The position numbers were made by a program, and so were the translations under genes. From the IMG/VR virus record IMGVR_UViG_2695420763_000003: 19,770 nucleotides of DNA; one strand, given 5' to 3'. The notes beneath the pieces are model-generated. The model was not told where the DNA came from and did not search any database. It saw nothing but the letters and a program-made list of their open reading frames with translations. This DNA comes from a virus (taxonomy: Duplodnaviria > Heunggongvirae > Uroviricota > Caudoviricetes). Below are positions 2,695 through 18,561 of this stretch, in pieces (position 1 is the first letter of the stretch; the number at the start of each line of letters is the position of its first letter).

Positions 2695-3243
2695 TCAGGC
2701 TTGAATACCTTTATCGAATCCCGGTAATAAAAACTGTCTCTGTCTCTCCAGACGTTCCAGCTTTGCAAGCAATTGAGGTTTTTTCGTTCTCCCCCAGCGA
2801 TTGAGCAGACGGCCTGGCATGCTGGCGACATCCTTCTCTTTCATGTACTCCAGCATTACGGCGTTACGTTCTGCTTCATAACTTTCGCTGTACTTACGGA
2901 GTTCTGCTGACATCCAGTTAAACGCATTGATATAGGCTTCTTTAACAGCATCGGCTTTTGCCCCGTTAAATCCCATAACCAGCATAACGAAGCCACTAAA
3001 GTCCATGCGGTAGTAAATCTGTTTCTTGTCAAAAATACCTAAGTCATTGATTTTCTCGACGGCCCAAAAATGGGTTGTCGAGAATTCCTCAGAACATCTC
3101 AAACATTTAATAGCCCTAATCACATGCTGATGGCGTTTACCAAATGCCCTGGCAATCTGGAAGGTGTCAGTTACCGGTTGACCTTCTGCTGCGGTAACTA
3201 ACTGGCGAAAGTCGAAGTCATGATTCGCAATTAATTCATTCAT
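2695..3243 (-). CDS. Rha-family phage regulatory protein (antirepressor-like)
   Basis: MNELIANHDFDFRQLVTAAEGQPVTDTFQIARAFGKRHQHVIRAIK... carries the GQPVTDS..IA..FGKRH..V.R.I pattern of the Phage_pRha domain. The track ORF extends to a TTG at 3327; I prefer the ATG at 3243. Confidence 0.65.
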   Translation of the reverse strand: MNELIANHDFDFRQLVTAAEGQPVTDTFQIARAFGKRHQHVIRAIKCLRCSEEFSTTHFWAVEKINDLGIFDKKQIYYRMDFSGFVMLVMGFNGAKADAVKEAYINAFNWMSAELRKYSESYEAERNAVMLEYMKEKDVASMPGRLLNRWGRTKKPQLLAKLERLERQRQFLLPGFDKGIQA

Positions 3244-3391
3244 GGCGTTGCCTGCTTCTTGAAATGAACCTTTGCCGCACAGGAAACCAGCCCACCGAGG
3301 CTCGCCAGCACTAACTGGTATCCTCAAAGGCCCATTCCAAAGGGTCAGGTTCGGTGTTTATTGTGCGCTGCGGTGCGCGGTGAAATACCGG

Positions 3392-3460: not shown

Positions 3461-3898
3461 TTATTTTAAGCACTGCGTCCTGATGTATTCCTGCAGGTAG
3501 TTAACCTGCGCGGTTATCTTGTCGATTCCACCTCGGAGACGGTAATAATTGAGTTCAGCATCTGCTGTAAGTCCTGGGCTTTCTCCATCGCCCATGCTGC
3601 TGGCTCCGGTCGTTGACTTTGCACAGGTGGCGGAGACTTGCAGGCGCTTACGCCCAGCAGAAACATCAGCACGGAGACTTTCGATAGTCGCATTAGCATC
3701 AGCAAGCTCCTTTGTGTATCTGGCGTCAAGTTCTGCTACATCACGTTGCCGCTTCTGCATATCAGCGATGATGGATGTGGCTTTATCGCGCTGCTCTTTG
3801 TAGGCGATGGCGTTATCACGGTAATGATTAACAGCCCATGACAGGCAGGCGATAATGCAGATAACCAGAGCGGAGATAATAACGGTTACCCTGCTCAT
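3461..3898 (-). CDS. Rz: i-spanin Rz
   Basis: [39 protein letters not shown]... resembles lambda Rz with its N-terminal TM segment. The ATG at 3898 overlaps the R stop (ATGA). The track ORF starts at an upstream GTG (3910). Confidence 0.85.
3514..3699 (-). CDS. Rz1: o-spanin Rz1 lipoprotein, embedded in the +1 frame of Rz
   Basis: Track ORF 3514..3729 contains [36 protein letters not shown]..., a signal peptide with lipobox-like VSAC and a proline-rich mature region, fully inside Rz as in lambda. Exact start is uncertain. Confidence 0.6.
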
Positions 3899-4392
3899 TG
3901 TTGCCCCCACAAACAGACTTCACGCTCAATCTCGCGGCGAGTCATCAGCCCTTTCCATTGCTTACCGCCAGCGTATGTCCAGCGCCGTAGCTGATCACAT
4001 GCGCCTTTGATATCGCCCTGGTTTATTTTGCGAAGAAGCGTCGATGTTCTGAAATTGCCAGCGCCCACGTTGTAAACGAACGAGTAAAGAGCGCCGCGCG
4101 TTGTTTCCGGTATATCGACGTTGATGTACGGGTTAATTTGTCTGGCGACCGTGGCAAGGTCTTTATTCAGGAGGGCTTTGCATTCTGCTTCGGTATACGT
4201 TTTACCGGGCATGATGTCTTTTCCGGTGTGTCCGTGACATACAGTCCATACGCCAACGATATCTTTGTATGGTATGTAGCTGACACCTTCCAGACCATCG
4301 TTACCACCTGGACCAGTGATGAGCACAGACGCTATGGCAACAGCCCCACTACCAATAGCAGCTGCAACAGCCTTGCGTAATGACGGCGACAT
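3895..4392 (-). CDS. R: SAR endolysin (P21 R-type lysozyme)
   Basis: 165-aa [60 protein letters not shown]... is near-identical to the phage 21 R endolysin as recalled, with its glycine/alanine-rich N-terminal SAR segment. Confidence 0.9.
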
Positions 4393-4598
4393 TATTCACC
4401 TCTCGCAGCCTTACGCTTATCTTCTTTAATCTTGAAATAAAGATTTGTCAGATACGTCAGCAGGCCAAACAGCAGACTTCCCAGCACACCTATTGCCACC
4501 CACTGGGACGGAGAGACTTTGTCCAGCAGCTGCAGTAACCAGTATCCCGTCCCCACCGCTGACGTGGTGTATGACACACCTGTTGTGATTTTTTCCAT
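4392..4598 (-). CDS. S: Pinholin (S21-type holin)
   Basis: 68-aa [68 protein letters not shown] resembles phage 21 pinholin S21. Its stop overlaps the R start. Confidence 0.85.
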
Positions 4599-4640
4599 CT
4601 GATGTATGTCTCCGTCACCGCCGACAGAAAATGAAAGTAA

Positions 4641-4679
4641 AGAAAAACAAAAAAGCCGCCAGTGTCACCCACTGACGGC
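4641..4679 (-). terminator. Intrinsic terminator about 45 nt upstream of the S start, in the late-transcript direction
   Basis: Minus-strand RNA GCCGUCAGUG-GGUGA-CACUGGCGGC forms a 10-bp stem (one G-U pair) followed by UUUUUUGUUUUUC. Confidence 0.5.
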
Positions 4680-4853
4680 CAACGCCGGGAGCCGTGATTA
4701 TGGCATTCAGGCTCTGCTAAAAATGCCAGATAACATTCCGGCCTCCCCTGATTCAGGTTATAAATGACACAATATCTTGACAACATCCGTCACTGTCTGT
4801 CAGAAAATGTACTGCCATATAGAAGCAACATGTGAAGTACATCTATCCTTTTG

Positions 4854-4896
4854 AGCCAGCACCTCTCCACCGAAAGTCAGTGCTGGCTGTTTTTTT
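4854..4896 (+). terminator. Plus-strand intrinsic terminator (unit A)
   Basis: 9-bp stem AGCCAGCAC (4854-4862) / GUGCUGGCU (4880-4888), 17-nt loop, then GTTTTTTT. Confidence 0.5.
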
Positions 4897-5003
4897 CCTT
4901 AATAAGGCATCTGTAACTGAAACAATCCGCATATTGATAATATATTGACAGGCATCATTGCTGTCTGTGAAAAATAAGTCTCTACAAACATATAAGGCCT
5001 TTT

Positions 5004-5045
5004 AGCCAGCGTCTTCTTTTTCAGGTCAGTCGCTGGCTTTTTTTA
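5004..5045 (+). terminator. Plus-strand intrinsic terminator (unit B)
   Basis: 8-bp stem AGCCAGCG (5004-5011) / CGCTGGCT (5031-5038), 19-nt loop, then TTTTTTT. It ends exactly at the stop codon of the convergent esterase gene. Confidence 0.5.
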
Positions 5046-6896
5046 TTATGCTGCCGGTGCATTTATCTCCAGCATCAGACTTTCTATCTCAACGCCATAC
5101 GCTGCATTTTTTGTAACATCCGTCAGCGTCAGCGCATTCAGTCCCAGTGTCAGACTGTCTTTTATAACCTGGAATGCCGGGCCAGCCACTCCATTCAGTT
5201 TCGGAGTAACCGTGGCACTGCCGGCGGTGAACACCAGCTCCAGCGTCTGCCAGTCGTTACCGTAATCGCCGAACTCCCCCAGCTTCGTGTTTCCGGCTTT
5301 CCTGTGATGCATCAGATTCACTCTGCCGTCAGTGGTCTGAGTGAAGTACGACATCAGGAACGGATTACCGGTACCCGTCATCGCCACACCATCAGGAACG
5401 GGAGCATCCGTATACAGATAAATCCCCAGCCCGAACTGATTGTTGGTCAGTGCGCCTGACAGGCGGAACTTACAGGTCAGTCTGCCGCCCTGTGTCAGCA
5501 GGGTAATTGCGTCATCCACCGGATGCGTCAGGGACCAGGTTTTATTGCTCTGCTTGGTGATCTTAAATACACCATCTGACAACTGAATTCCGCCATCCTT
5601 AATGCTCCAGCCCTGCGCAGCAGCCTCTCCGGCTGCCGGCAGCAGGGAGATTGTGCGAACGGACGTATCTGCAGACGGACCCGATGGCGTGTTGCCGCCG
5701 GGCGAGGGTTTGATTTCCGGTGCCTTACCACTGATGAAGGCTGAGGTGCGCCCGGCTGCGTTCAGAATAGCGGTTGCCAGACGATCCGGAATAATGCTCC
5801 TGCGCGCCCATGAACTGAAATGTGTCGGGCGGTTTGATGATACCTGGTTTCCATTCGTTCTCGATGCCGCACCGTAATATCCTGATGCCGGAATATCCGG
5901 ATCTTCTGCCGGCGCGTTAGTGGCGGTATTGACGCCGTTACCGTCTGTCATGAAGGGCACAAAATAAACGCCCTCACTCTCCCTGTTTTTGTACGCCCCG
6001 TAAATGGTGTTGTACTGGGTGCCGTAGGTATTTTTCCAGTAATACGTCGTGTCACCACAAATCCACGGCACATCTGCAGCACTGCCACCATGGCACTGCG
6101 CGTTAAACACGGAGAGGTCAGCACGAAACTGTGTCAGCATGGCTGTAAACAGCGCAGGTTGCTGTGCGTGGGTGGCGGCGCTCATGTCAAACTCTCCCTG
6201 CATCCAGCACACCGCCAGCAACACATTTTTCGGGTTCTTCTGTAATGCAGCTTTGGTGCGCGCAATCAGGTCCTGATATAACGGTTTACCCACACCCCAG
6301 CGCGCCGAATCCTGGCTGGCCCCCGTGTCCGCACTGAATGTCCCCTCCGCGCCCTGGGTAAATGCCGAACCACCACGACAGCATGGTACCAGCAGGATCC
6401 CCGCGTTATTCGGGATATACGGGAGCAGTTTTTTGGCAATATGTAAACCCTGGCCGACACAGCCGTACTGCCCTTTGCTCAGGTCTGCCTTCGGATGATT
6501 CAGCGTACTCATATCCTGCACATCATGCAGGCAGTGGTCGGCCGGAATAATATCGTTATATCTGCAGGCAGCCCCACCCGGCGTCACTGTACTGCGGCGC
6601 GCCAGCTGTTTAATGCGCGGATCCGGAGCATCGTATGAATCCGGCAGCGGAAGCCCTTCACCGTAAGCCATGGCATTGGATTGCCCGGCCAGTACGATGA
6701 CGTAGTACCAATCCGGCTCAGTTGCACCACTGACCACCACATCACCTTCTGCTGTAATCGCCTGCATCAGGGTATAAGGGGTTATGGCCACCGGACTACC
6801 AAACGGCTGCCAGCCCTCTTTCAGTTTGTGTGTCAGCTTTTCCGCAAGGTCTGACGGCGACGCCGCCCTGACAACATCATAATGTTTAAATGTCAT
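5046..6896 (-). CDS. nanS-p: Prophage sialate O-acetylesterase, NanS-p type (DUF1737 N-domain + SGNH/SASA esterase + C-terminal domain)
   Basis: 616-aa ORF. The N-terminus MTFKHYDVVRAASPSDLAEKLTHKLKEGWQPFGSPV is DUF1737-like. VIVLAGQSNAMAYGEG carries the GQSN motif of SGNH/SASA esterases. The C-terminal ~200 aa are Gly/Thr-rich and beta-rich. Position between Q and S matches nanS-p genes of Stx and related prophages. Confidence 0.8.
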   Translation of the reverse strand: MTFKHYDVVRAASPSDLAEKLTHKLKEGWQPFGSPVAITPYTLMQAITAEGDVVVSGATEPDWYYVIVLAGQSNAMAYGEGLPLPDSYDAPDPRIKQLARRSTVTPGGAACRYNDIIPADHCLHDVQDMSTLNHPKADLSKGQYGCVGQGLHIAKKLLPYIPNNAGILLVPCCRGGSAFTQGAEGTFSADTGASQDSARWGVGKPLYQDLIARTKAALQKNPKNVLLAVCWMQGEFDMSAATHAQQPALFTAMLTQFRADLSVFNAQCHGGSAADVPWICGDTTYYWKNTYGTQYNTIYGAYKNRESEGVYFVPFMTDGNGVNTATNAPAEDPDIPASGYYGAASRTNGNQVSSNRPTHFSSWARRSIIPDRLATAILNAAGRTSAFISGKAPEIKPSPGGNTPSGPSADTSVRTISLLPAAGEAAAQGWSIKDGGIQLSDGVFKITKQSNKTWSLTHPVDDAITLLTQGGRLTCKFRLSGALTNNQFGLGIYLYTDAPVPDGVAMTGTGNPFLMSYFTQTTDGRVNLMHHRKAGNTKLGEFGDYGNDWQTLELVFTAGSATVTPKLNGVAGPAFQVIKDSLTLGLNALTLTDVTKNAAYGVEIESLMLEINAPAA

Positions 6897-6939
6897 TATT
6901 CCTCCCGGCCGGGATAGTGTATTAAATCAGATATGGAGT

Positions 6940-6984
6940 GGGCTGTAGTCCGGAAGCCTGAATGACACACGGGGACTACAGCCC
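6940..6984. repeat. Perfect 12-bp inverted repeat (stem-loop) in the 5' leader of the esterase gene
   Basis: GGGCTGTAGTCC (6940-6951) and GGACTACAGCCC (6973-6984) separated by 21 nt, about 45 nt upstream of the ATG at 6896. No adjacent T-run. Confidence 0.6.
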
Positions 6985-7079
6985 AAGAAATGAAGAAGGC
7001 CACGCAGTTGCGCAGCCTGATAAACCCTGGTTAAAATCCACACGATAACAACACAACAATATCAGTATCTCATGCTATT

Positions 7080-7105
7080 GCCCGAACCCATTCGGGCATT
7101 TTTTA
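7080..7105 (+). terminator. Plus-strand intrinsic terminator
   Basis: GCCCGAA-CCCA-TTCGGGC (7-bp stem) followed by ATTTTTT. Confidence 0.45.
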
Positions 7106-7110
7106 CCCAT

Positions 7111-7141
7111 AAAAAATGCCCCTCCGGAGAGGGGCATTTTT
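7111..7141. terminator. Bidirectional intrinsic terminator
   Basis: AAAAAA-TGCCCCTC-CGGA-GAGGGGCA-TTTTT: 8-bp GC-rich stem with an A-run on one side and a T-run on the other. Confidence 0.55.
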
Positions 7142-7338
7142 GCATGCACATTCTTTTTCTTGCATGGTGCCGGGTGCCTCCCGGTGAATTCAGTATCAGC
7201 ACCTGAATCCGCGATTATCACATATACCTACTTGCTGATTGCCCCTCCGCACAGGGGGATTCACCATGCAGTAGTATTTTTAATAAACAGCAAATAAAAA
7301 AATCAAGCATTATGCAGGCTGTTTCTTTTTATCACCGG

Positions 7339-7470
7339 CTACAGCAATACCACAATGCCGCAGACCAGCACCCCATCCGCCAGCACCGACATGATTCTGC
7401 TGGTGAAATCCACCATCACCACCAGAAACAGCAGGAGTGCAGCCACAGCCAGGCGCAGTTTTACCGTCAC
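7339..7470 (-). CDS. Putative 43-aa hydrophobic small protein, start overlapping the stop of the TerB-like frame
   Basis: GTG at 7470..7468 overlaps TGA at 7469..7467 (GTGA). Translation is VTVKLRLAVAALLLFLVVMVDFTSRIMSVLADGVLVCGIVVLL, a single predicted TM helix. Below the ORF-track length cutoff. Expression is unproven. Confidence 0.3.
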   Translation of the reverse strand: MTVKLRLAVAALLLFLVVMVDFTSRIMSVLADGVLVCGIVVLL

Positions 7471-7960
7471 AGGTGATTCTCCAGACGAAGACCCAGAACA
7501 CCGGCAATCTCTTCCAGCACCTTGCGCTCTTCCGGCTCAATTTCGCCGTCTGCCTCCGCAATGGCCACCGCCACATCCAGCACATCTTCCGCTTCACGCG
7601 TATCGTGTTTCACATCCTCGATCTCACGTAACGCCGCACGACGACCAATTTTAAAGTTCGTATCCAGCTGACCGATAATGGTTGCGCTAATCGCATTAAT
7701 TTCTGACGTAAACGCGGACAGCGCAGGCTGATTACGCAGTACCTGTTCGATCTTCGCTTTCTAGGAAGCCTCACATTCACCATCTGCACAGGCCACCAGG
7801 TAGGCAGCATTAATAACCGCCTGTGCCAGATCGCGTTTCTCAAACTTTCCTTTTTCCGGTTAACGTGACACACCAATAACTCTTGTCGAAAAAGCCAGCA
7901 AGCTGAAAGACCGGTATTCACAACCACCAGCGCGTTTACTGTACTGGCGTGATTTCAGTC
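7467..7960 (-). pseudogene. Degraded TerB-family (tellurite-resistance-like) gene
   Basis: Minus-strand segments translate to ...AGFFDK..., ...PEKGKFEKRDLAQAVINAAYLVACADGECEAS, then in-frame TAG (7761-7763), then KAKIEQVLRNQPALSAFTSEINAISATIIGQLDTNFKIGRRAALREIEDVKHDTREAEDVLDVAVAIAEADGEIEPEERKVLEEIAGVLGLRLENHL*. These segments show TerB-like ADG and EEK motifs. They are broken by an in-frame TAA (7860-7862), the TAG, and at least one frameshift near the N-terminus. No Met-initiated intact ORF remains. Confidence 0.5.
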
Positions 7961-7990
7961 ATAAAAAAACCCGCCTGGCGACGGGTGTAA
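7961..7990 (-). terminator. tR'-like intrinsic terminator of the short pR' leader RNA
   Basis: Minus-strand RNA ACCCG-UCGCCAGG-CGGGU followed by UUUUUUUAU, about 40-60 nt downstream of the predicted pR' start. Confidence 0.6.
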
Positions 7991-8033
7991 AAAATCTTCT
8001 AACGTCAGGCATAAAACGCCCATCGTTAGGGCA

Positions 8034-8061
8034 AATTTACCACAGATTCGGGAAAAATCAA
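8034..8061 (-). promoter_or_regulatory. Late promoter pR' with adjacent qut-like region
   Basis: Minus-strand TTGATT (-35, 8061..8056), 16-nt spacer, TAAATT (-10, 8039..8034). The segment GGTAAATTTGCCCTAACGATGGG closely matches the lambda pR' -10/start region GGTAAATTTGACTCAACGATGGG as recalled. It lies directly downstream of Q. Confidence 0.65.
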
Positions 8062-8066
8062 CAAAG

Positions 8067-8888
8067 CTATCTGGTCACCTTTTTCAGTTGTTGTTCTGCC
8101 CATGCTTCTTCAATATCAAACTGCACCACCAGCGTATCGTAAAAACGTTTAACTGTTTTTTTCCATGTATCAAGAGATATGGCATCGGTTACATTACATA
8201 TGGCATTAAATGCCTCCGTTGAAGGTAATCTTTCATAGCCACGACCACCACAACGCTGGCAGTCTCTGATAACAGGCATACCACGTTTTACCGACTCTTC
8301 ACGATGAATGGCAACACCGCGCCCACGACAATCTTTACAGGCAGTGGATACCTCTCCCTTCCCTCCACACTCCGGACAGGCAACTTTTACCACCTCCCTG
8401 ACTTTTTTCCATTCCTCCCAGTAAGACGGATACACGCCTTTTGTGCACTTTGCCCACACTGGCGGCTTACCATCCGGATACTGGATCTTGTTTGTAAAAA
8501 CCTCGCTTTCAATAAATTTTTTTCCGTGACAACAGGGGCACTGTTTTTTGCTCGCCGCGCTACGGGCATAATCTTCAAACGCATACGAAGCCATAATACG
8601 CATCACTGCCGGTTTTATTTCTGCCGGGAGTTTTCTTAACGCCGCCACGCGATCACACCGACTGAGTGCATATTCTGTCAGCAATTCTGTTGCCCGCTCT
8701 CTGTCATTCATACTAATGCCCATTTTCCCAAGGAACGCAGAAAACCCCATCTCAGCCCAATTCTGTGTCATGCCCTGCGCGGCCATCACATCAGTGATAC
8801 TCAGCGTATCTTTCGACGTTGAGGCCGATGCATCAGTCAGGCCGGGGGATTTTGGGGAGTAGTATTTCGGTAAATCTTCCAGTTTCAT
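8067..8888 (-). CDS. Q: Late-gene antiterminator Q (Qin quuQ-like, 273 aa)
   Basis: Sits between rusA and pR'. The N-terminus MKLEDLPKYYSPKSP... resembles Qin-type Q as recalled. Contains four CxxCxGxG-like motifs (CPCCHGKK, CPECGGKG, CKDCRGRG, CQRCGGRG). Start overlaps the rusA stop (ATGA). Confidence 0.8.
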   Translation of the reverse strand: MKLEDLPKYYSPKSPGLTDASASTSKDTLSITDVMAAQGMTQNWAEMGFSAFLGKMGISMNDRERATELLTEYALSRCDRVAALRKLPAEIKPAVMRIMASYAFEDYARSAASKKQCPCCHGKKFIESEVFTNKIQYPDGKPPVWAKCTKGVYPSYWEEWKKVREVVKVACPECGGKGEVSTACKDCRGRGVAIHREESVKRGMPVIRDCQRCGGRGYERLPSTEAFNAICNVTDAISLDTWKKTVKRFYDTLVVQFDIEEAWAEQQLKKVTR

Positions 8889-10765: not shown

Positions 10766-10921
10766 TTACTCCTCAGGTTCGTAAGCTGTGAAGACAGCGA
10801 CCTCCGTCTGGCCGGTTCGGATTCGTACCTCGCAGAGGTCTTTCCTCGTTACCAGTGCCGTCACTATGACGGTTAAACAGATGACGATCAGGGCGATTAA
10901 CATCGCCTTTTGCTGCTTCAT
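10766..10921 (-). CDS. hokD: Type I toxin Hok (HokD/RelF-like, 51 aa)
   Basis: MKQQKAMLIALIVICLTVIVTALVTRKDLCEVRIRTGQTEVAVFTAYEPEE with AAGGAG RBS. The track ORF 10766..10978 adds an in-frame 19-codon upstream extension (mok-like). The upstream leader carries a 9-bp inverted repeat (11043-11051 / 11070-11078). Confidence 0.9.
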   Translation of the reverse strand: MKQQKAMLIALIVICLTVIVTALVTRKDLCEVRIRTGQTEVAVFTAYEPEE

Positions 10922-11166
10922 AGCCTGCTTCTCCTTGCCTTTCGGCGCGTAAGAGGCTAACCTACATGTGTCTAGCATGAAATTGGCCTCAGATTAATGT
11001 TAGGCGTCTTGCAGGACGCGTAATGTTAACTGGGGCTTTTCTCTGTCTGCCTTACGGTGGCATGCCCGAGGCAGACAGCCTCAAGCGCCCGCAGCAATTC
11101 TACTTAACTCTCGCTTTACCGCAAACCGTTTTTACCCGATATGGGAATTCCCATATCGTAATGAAT

Positions 11167-18507: not shown

Positions 18508-18561
18508 TTTTCTGGTGACTTTTGGCGGTATCAGTTCTACTCCGTGACTGCTCTGCCGCCC
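18508..18561 (+). ncRNA. dicF: DicF small RNA (ftsZ-targeting sRNA processed from the dicB operon transcript)
   Basis: TTTCTGGTGACTTTTGGCGGTATCAGTTCTACTCCGTGACTGCTCTGCCGCCC followed by TTTTT matches the 53-nt K-12 DicF sequence as I recall it, with about 3 substitutions. It ends in a GGCGG...GCCGCC terminator hairpin. Coordinates are from my own line indexing and were not re-verified to the base. Confidence 0.75.

Follow-up and report, generated by a model that had tools for sequence, protein, structure and literature searches.

NanS-p sialate O-acetylesterases are encoded by Shiga toxin (Stx) phages and by phages that carry no stx (PMC10462455, PMC8065619). Every NanS-p allele of EDL933 and O104:H4 that has been tested, whether from a Stx or a non-Stx prophage, was an active esterase and supported growth on 5-N-acetyl-9-O-acetylneuraminic acid (Neu5,9Ac2) (PMC8065619, PMC10462455). 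Domain shuffling among NanS-p proteins has also been published (PMC10462455). The catalytic residues of Escherichia coli NanS are Gln18, Ser19 and His301 (PMC9063846); NanS/YjhS is represented by the structure 3PT5, and a crystallised NanS-p C-terminal domain by 6YP6. The present analysis concerns a nanS-p gene in the virus record IMGVR_UViG_2695420763_000003, a stretch of 19,770 nucleotides (nt) which is referred to below as the window. The window covers a portion of a lambdoid prophage, with the late genes on the minus strand, and all coordinates given are window positions. The gene is very probably a functional nanS-p allele in the standard moron slot of the late region, encoding a Q-driven sialate O-acetylesterase that would be released at lysis.

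Identification of the nanS-p gene and its product

The nanS-p open reading frame (ORF) occupied positions 5046-6896 on the minus strand, started with ATG and encoded 616 amino acids (aa). A ribosome-binding site, GGGAGG (6901-6906, minus strand), could be read 4 nt before the start codon. The assignment of the coding sequence was based on the ORF and its translation, domain matches, relatives in the PDB and an exact match at NCBI. In the protein, three Pfam domains scored higher than their curated cut-offs: DUF1737 (aa 3-50), SASA PF03629 (aa 66-262) and DUF6645 (aa 467-577). The N-terminal DUF1737 domain (PF08410; 6747-6890, minus strand) was matched with E=1.1e-15 and 57.7 bits against a cut-off of 24, and SASA with 48.6 bits against a cut-off of 24.8. 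The NanS-like SGNH/SASA esterase domain as a whole (aa 59-379; 5760-6722, minus strand) could be delimited by a phmmer match to 3PT5 (E=5e-121). The C-terminal DUF6645 domain (aa 421-613; 5058-5636, minus strand) matched 6YP6 by phmmer (E=1.1e-29) and PF20350 with E=4.5e-18 and 65.9 bits against a cut-off of 27. Its assignment as a lectin-like jelly-roll was made from the sequence match only, a single-sequence AlphaFold2 model (mean predicted local distance difference test score 31, predicted template modelling score 0.23) having been discarded. The Pfam search proposed in an initial annotation of this locus, which had been made from the sequence alone, thus recovered both DUF1737 and SASA, and the identification of a NanS-p-type esterase with an additional C-terminal domain was borne out by Pfam and phmmer.

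The motif GQSN at aa 71-74 contains the oxyanion Gln72 and the catalytic Ser73, and the motif RPTH at aa 356-359, which forms the RxxH block, contains the catalytic His359. These three residues were invariant on alignment with the 933W, phi24B and YYZ-2008 proteins, and they aligned to Gln18, Ser19 and His301 of NanS (roles according to PMC9063846); the SGNH catalytic residues on which the initial annotation had made its esterase assignment depend are therefore present. NCBI holds the exact 616-aa protein under the name 'SASA family carbohydrate esterase'. Judged from its sequence, the ORF is an intact, ordinary and already catalogued NanS-p sialate O-acetylesterase allele of lambdoid prophages, and activity of this allele on Neu5,9Ac2 or mucin sialic acids is predicted by analogy with the tested homologues.

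Late-region position and absence of stx

The genes were arranged in the order Q, a TerB pseudogene, a DUF3927 gene and small RNA (sRNA) genes, nanS-p, PasA, and the lysis genes S-R-Rz. RusA, DUF968 and then the 273-aa late antiterminator Q (8067-8888, minus strand; Pfam PF03589 Antiterm, E=4.7e-50) lie upstream of nanS-p, and the same 273-aa Q precedes nanS-p in related loci too. The initial annotation had placed the gene in the slot where Stx phages carry stx followed by nanS-p. Stx1 phage YYZ-2008 confirms this placement with the order Q, stx1A, stx1B, a 99%-identical 616-aa esterase and holin. No stx could be detected by tblastn in the window, and no stx remnants either, in agreement with the description of a prophage without stx; the window also contained no tRNA genes such as those found upstream of stx in 933W. 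Presenting nanS-p without stx as unusual is not justified, because this situation is common and published. Of 80 viral-contig loci encoding proteins of 93% identity or more, just 2 had stx1 upstream, and chromosomal PasA genes adjoin stx in under 3% of cases (bioRxiv 10.64898/2026.05.13.724894).

The gene had further been described as the only intact cargo of the late region. One part of this description stands: the TerB-family gene between Q and nanS-p (7470-7847, minus strand) is a pseudogene, with 124 of 126 residues identical in a tblastn comparison with the intact 142-aa TerB of the related locus L088 and an in-frame Glu-to-stop change at ~7763-7761 relative to it. The TerB of a close relative is likewise annotated with 'internal stop'. 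The other part fails, as the late region carries three further genes. These are a 43-aa DUF3927/TciB-like small ORF, apparently intact (7339-7470, minus strand; ORF list; phrog_1470, E=1.6e-21), a form also annotated in relatives; a Rha-family regulator (2695-3327) downstream of Rz; and a DUF3950 gene (2313-2507). Three sRNA genes, STnc100-type, AgvB and PasA, also contradict it. The lysis cassette (3461-4598, minus strand) consisted of a P21-type holin S (4392-4598; PF04971), a lysozyme (3895-4392; PF00959) and Rz (3461-3910; PF03245). A lambda-type small terminase, Nu1, was found downstream of the lysis genes, Rha and DUF3950.

Promoter and terminators upstream of nanS-p

A candidate late promoter PR' (8034-8061, minus strand), made up of TTGATT, a 16-nt spacer and TGgTAAATT, could be read just after the Q stop codon; it fell below the stringency of the promoter scan and was found by reading the sequence. 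At least three late-strand terminators lie between Q/PR' and nanS-p. The first is a tR'-like intrinsic terminator at 7986-7962 (minus strand), ACCCGTCGCCAGGCGGGT followed by T7, which was recognised by the terminator scan and in the sequence; the second lies at 7132-7109; and the third is a terminator-like hairpin at 7018-6997 (minus strand), detected by the terminator scan and compared in 74 leaders. The promoter scan revealed no strong sigma-70 site in the nanS-p leader. In published experiments, mitomycin C and norfloxacin induced nanS-p homologues along with the late genes (PMC10462455, PMC8065619), and nanS-p increased by 1-2.4 logs with mitomycin C (PMC10462455). With a PR'-like promoter, at least three late-strand terminators before the gene and inducible homologues, the dependence of nanS-p expression on Q read-through that had been predicted for this locus is plausible.

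Small RNA genes flanking nanS-p

The stretch that had been read as the leader of nanS-p contains a pair of sRNA genes missed by the initial annotation, so that reading was incomplete. An STnc100-type sRNA gene, a relative of PasD, was located at 7105-7295 on the minus strand (Rfam RF02076, 146.2 bits, gathering score 47, full model covered); it carries its own terminator at 7132-7109, where the terminator scan revealed a good hairpin followed by a U-run. The AgvB anti-sRNA, a GcvB mimic, was located at 7043-7104 on the plus strand (Rfam RF02702, 96.5 bits, gathering score 56) and was identical to the consensus. The two genes are convergent, their terminators abut, and an inverted repeat at 7094-7141 is common to both. 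Convergent sRNA pairs downstream of PR' at the moron site have been described for prophages of enterohaemorrhagic E. coli (EHEC) (PMC4104026). An Rfam search over 4300-8300 at permissive E-values added nothing credible to these two genes, apart from a sub-threshold AsxR match at the AgvB site. PasD2 was considered as a candidate in the window and rejected: blastn gave no match, and the STnc100-type gene occupies the equivalent position.

On the other side of the gene, PasA was located at 4812-5047 on the plus strand by its identity to the mapped PasA of enteropathogenic E. coli (EPEC) E2348/69 (85 of 85 and 236 of 236 nt). In E2348/69, PasA is an Hfq-dependent sRNA, mapped by RNA-seq and northern blotting, with a major form of 85 nt and a minor form of 236 nt (PMC8550237 Table S6). 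The major form corresponds to 4812-4896 in the window, and the minor form ends at 5047 with a second terminator, so that it shares 2 nt with the nanS-p stop codon. The orientation was the same as in E2348/69, antisense between esterase and holin, and the whole 447-nt esterase-holin spacer was 100% identical to that of the E2348/69 prophage PP2. The initial annotation had placed convergent terminators downstream of nanS-p. Two sites with a hairpin and a T-run do exist on the plus strand just 3' of the gene, at ~4853-4896 and 5004-5047, and terminator-like sites were enriched in the region (10 against 3.4 +/- 1.7 in shuffles). They were rejected as terminators of nanS-p because their T-runs lie on the plus strand and match the PasA 3' ends exactly; they are the ends of the major and minor PasA forms, and the PasA terminator hairpins fold as expected in the window.

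The PasA target site CUGAUGCUGGA could be read at the 3' end of the esterase mRNA (5068-5078, minus strand), where it corresponds to an entry in the target table obtained by ligating and sequencing interacting RNAs (RIL-seq) (PMC8550237). In EPEC, RIL-seq recovered PasA chimeras with this site at the esterase mRNA 3' end (PMC8550237). The arrangement of PasD/STnc100, sialic acid esterase, PasA/PasC and holin-lysozyme is common (bioRxiv 10.64898/2026.05.13.724894). Among the related loci L003-L082, the esterase-holin spacers fell into three size classes of ~165, 295 and 450 nt, which is consistent with gain or loss of PasA/PasC-type units of ~150 nt. The useful outcome of the analysis is a corrected map of the locus, in which the supposed leader and terminators are densely packed regulatory sRNA genes that were already known.

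A conserved stem-loop in the leader

A perfect stem-loop had been reported in the nanS-p leader. It is present and perfect, with arms at 6939-6951 and 6973-6985 that are 100% complementary, and measures 13 bp rather than the reported 12 bp, around a 21-nt loop (6939-6985, minus strand; repeat finder). By our own arithmetic, ~0.003 perfect 13-mer inverted repeats this close together would be expected per 4 kb, and the fold of 6890-7030 gave z=-2.6. A function as attenuator or terminator was considered and rejected, as a U-run follows the stem-loop on neither strand.

A homologous leader hairpin was observed in 933W, phi24B and YYZ-2008, and comparison of 74 related loci revealed it in three leader types; it was kept in leaders of nanS-p genes whose proteins are just 57% identical (933W, phi24B). 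Homologues could be located at ~4085-4135 in locus L083, in L084, and at 6536-6581 in L002. Across 11 distinct leaders, 88% of the cells were paired, compared with 24-43% in slid controls, and 3 of the 14 stem-loop pairs had changed on both sides. For a small sample of related sequences, this pattern is suggestive of a conserved RNA structure. The stem-loop was missing from the other nanS-p leader types, namely the PasD2 type and the AT-rich type, and neither an annotation nor a function could be found for it. Our guess is that it may act as a processing or stabilising element at the 5' end.

Prevalence, selection and recombination

The 90%-identity cluster to which this NanS-p protein belongs comprised 13,211 members, and the identical protein was found on at least 22 contigs. 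At least 80% of the region 4400-7400 was present in 687 of 5,426 complete E. coli genomes, the best match reaching 99.2%. The leader with AgvB, the STnc100-type gene and the hairpin occurred in 19 of 73 loci, and the spacer with PasA plus its extension in 34 of 67. The ratio of nonsynonymous to synonymous substitution rates (dN/dS) was 0.16-0.22 against diverged alleles in all three domains; judged from these values, nanS-p is under purifying selection, DUF1737 included. Comparison with L058 (L058/L059) gave a dS of 0.53 in DUF1737 and 0 in the C-terminal domain, and comparison with L077 (L077/L078) revealed moderate divergence in all nanS-p domains. Such differences in dS among domains indicate intragenic recombination at domain boundaries, which agrees with the published domain shuffling (PMC10462455). 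The nanS-p gene, its three-domain build, its slot after Q/stx, its stx-negative carriage, its induction with the late genes and the exact protein are already known. The locus thus carries little weight as a discovery; one small point is the conservation of the leader hairpin across distant nanS-p alleles.

Proposed function and alternative explanations

Published homologues argue for enzymatic activity, Q-dependence and lysis release of this allele. Upon prophage induction, Q-modified polymerase starting from PR' would read through tR', the STnc100-type terminator and the 7018-6997 hairpin, and the transcript would run into nanS-p and then into S-R-Rz; the esterase would therefore be made together with the lysis proteins. 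NanS-p would exit the cell at lysis, because DUF1737 stands in place of a signal peptide. Outside the cell, the SGNH site with Ser73 and His359, together with the lectin-like domain, would de-O-acetylate sialic acids, both free and bound to mucin, and so make the sialic acid usable by surviving sibling lysogens.

Several observations weigh against this reading. The block IV motif of the window protein is RPTH, while RSSH or RASH is commoner, although the RPTH variant has been noted earlier in the Stx2a prophage 86 (PMC10462455). The C-terminal domain shares just 37% identity with its crystallised counterpart, and of the four aromatic residues proposed to bind sugar, three stay aromatic in the window and one is Leu. 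The U-tract of the 7018-6997 hairpin, which precedes the leader stem-loop, reads TTCTTC in the window as a result of a T-to-C change, compared with T5-T6 in most relatives. Chimeras of esterase mRNA with PasA were recovered from EPEC cultures without inducer, and PasD, an upstream sRNA of the same orientation, is abundant in EPEC (PMC8550237). Finally, the phi24B homologue was found in virions, with a DUF1737 hexamer placed on hexon centres by cryo-electron microscopy (bioRxiv 10.64898/2026.04.10.717836).

The expression data bear on the possibility that nanS-p is expressed to a considerable extent without Q. Transcripts from an STnc100/PasD-type promoter would then leak through the STnc100-type terminator and the weakened hairpin, PasA would tune the message, the strong terminators at 4742-4654 would keep the lysis genes off, and some esterase would be made in lysogens that are not induced. 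The abundance of PasD in uninduced EPEC makes a degree of transcription without Q possible; both PasD2 and PasA are abundant there, and Hfq chimeras of PasA with the 3' end of the esterase mRNA are formed (PMC8550237), in a strain whose esterase-holin spacer is identical to that of the window. Among the 74 leaders, only that of the window showed T changed to C in the U-tract of the last terminator ahead of the gene, the other 73 having T5-T8 or no such element, and this weakening could raise read-through into nanS-p. Two late-strand terminator-like hairpins were also found by the terminator scan between PasA and S, just upstream of S (4742-4725 and 4680-4654, minus strand), one of them a stem of 11 pairs ahead of a U-run; any nanS-p transcription independent of Q might thereby be kept away from the lysis genes. 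Such a scheme is nevertheless somewhat unlikely to account for much of the expression. NanS-p has no export signal, and an intracellular esterase would miss its periplasmic or external substrate unless lysis occurred. If part of the population had induced spontaneously, this could account for the RIL-seq reads; the STnc100 terminator combines a good hairpin with a U-run; and the STnc100/PasD-type promoter is putative here.

The virion data raise a second possibility, that NanS-p is mainly a virion component whose DUF1737 docks on hexons and displays or releases the esterase, which would aid the phage within mucus or on surface glycans that are O-acetylated, instead of nourishing the lysogen. 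DUF1737 is present in the window protein, residues 1-31 are nearly identical to those of phi24B, and identity over aa 1-55 is 58%; the domain is under purifying selection, and the gene would be expressed with the late virion and lysis genes. However, the GYG/Tyr42 loop that anchors the phi24B protein falls in an alignment gap, the window protein having a Tyr at position 41, where the surrounding sequence differs, and the SISSP linker (SISSPEEPGNRPT), an SSP-containing, proposed self-processing site, is absent. The packaging genes are of the lambda type (Nu1) and not those of the Traversvirus T=9 module. Moreover, the identical 616-aa NanS-p occurs with two unrelated head modules, a lambda-like one with Nu1/GpA/gpW/S49/gpD-like genes (L086/L087) and an HK97-like one with Terminase_2 and an S78-capsid fusion (L088, CP047378.1), and alleles with at least 93% identity occur with at least three packaging types. 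Specific capsid docking is hard to picture, because the same protein and alleles occur with several head and packaging types. The capsid role has been described in a single preprint for a 57%-identical protein, and for the window it appears quite doubtful. It and Q-independent read-through are non-exclusive. A wider version, in which NanS-p would also be a capsid-displayed, self-processing mucin esterase with DUF1737 on hexons of several head types, tuned by sRNAs (PasA) and the leader hairpin, seems to us distinctly improbable. If true, a capsid role would extend to a lambda-like prophage and to hundreds of stx-negative EHEC and EPEC prophages with the same allele, and the gene would not be just lysogen cargo.

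That nanS-p is an inactive relic in a decaying prophage is extremely improbable: the adjoining TerB is a pseudogene and many prophages of this type are cryptic, but the ORF is full length and of the size seen in relatives, its catalytic residues are intact, its ribosome-binding site is strong, dN/dS is ~0.2, and the identical protein recurs on at least 22 contigs.

Other RNA genes in the window

A sok antitoxin RNA was detected at 10916-11090 on the minus strand (Rfam, 115 bits), adjoining a short hok-like ORF at 10766-10978; by these matches, the nin-like region holds a type I toxin-antitoxin module formed by the two. The DicF sRNA was found at 18510-18561 on the plus strand (Rfam, 71.5 bits) in the early-left region, near Kil/DicB-like genes as judged by comparison with the annotated relative L001.

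Comparison with known systems

The NanS-p proteins of 933W (L0105/z1466) and phi24B (vb_24B_21/gp84) share with the window the same three domains, the catalytic motifs, the position between stx/Q and S and a homologous leader hairpin. Identity to the window protein was 57% overall, comprising 58% in DUF1737, 71% in SASA and 37% in the C-terminal domain. The window protein is 29 aa shorter, without the SISSPEEPGNRPT linker and, in the alignment, without the GYG loop, and its carrier prophage is lambda-like, whereas 933W and phi24B are Traversvirus members.

The chromosomal E. coli NanS/YjhS (3PT5) and the window protein have in common an SGNH type II core that has Gln-Ser and His but lacks a catalytic Asp. 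NanS consists of the esterase core alone, the 337 residues of 3PT5 aligning just to aa 59-379 of the window protein. NanS is exported by means of a signal peptide. Unlike NanS, NanS-p has DUF1737 at its N-terminus and a lectin-like C-terminal domain, and it is phage-borne.

The esterase of Stx1 phage YYZ-2008 (YYZ_gp42), which represents the NanS-p of Stx1a prophages, has 616 aa and is 99% identical to the window protein. Both loci possess the leader stem-loop (46 of 47 nt), PasA (85 of 85 nt) and the same holin downstream. DNA homology (97%) extends from the holin through nanS-p and ~295 nt of the leader, and stops ~205 nt short of stx1B. Only YYZ-2008 has stx1AB, ~200 nt upstream of the shared block, together with a different Q and an HNH/terminase head module, and its AgvB-family anti-sRNA has a different 5' variable region. 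The window differs in having the TerB pseudogene, DUF3927 and a full STnc100-type gene.

The PP2 locus of EPEC E2348/69 is arranged as pasD2, esterase (E2348C_0688, 616 aa), pasA and holin. It shares ~97% DNA identity with the window from the lysis genes through nanS-p, as well as the same lysozyme, Rz and Rha. The two loci part in the leader: in PP2, PasD2 ends ~90 nt before the ATG, with neither AgvB nor the 13-bp hairpin, while the window carries the STnc100-type/AgvB pair and the hairpin.

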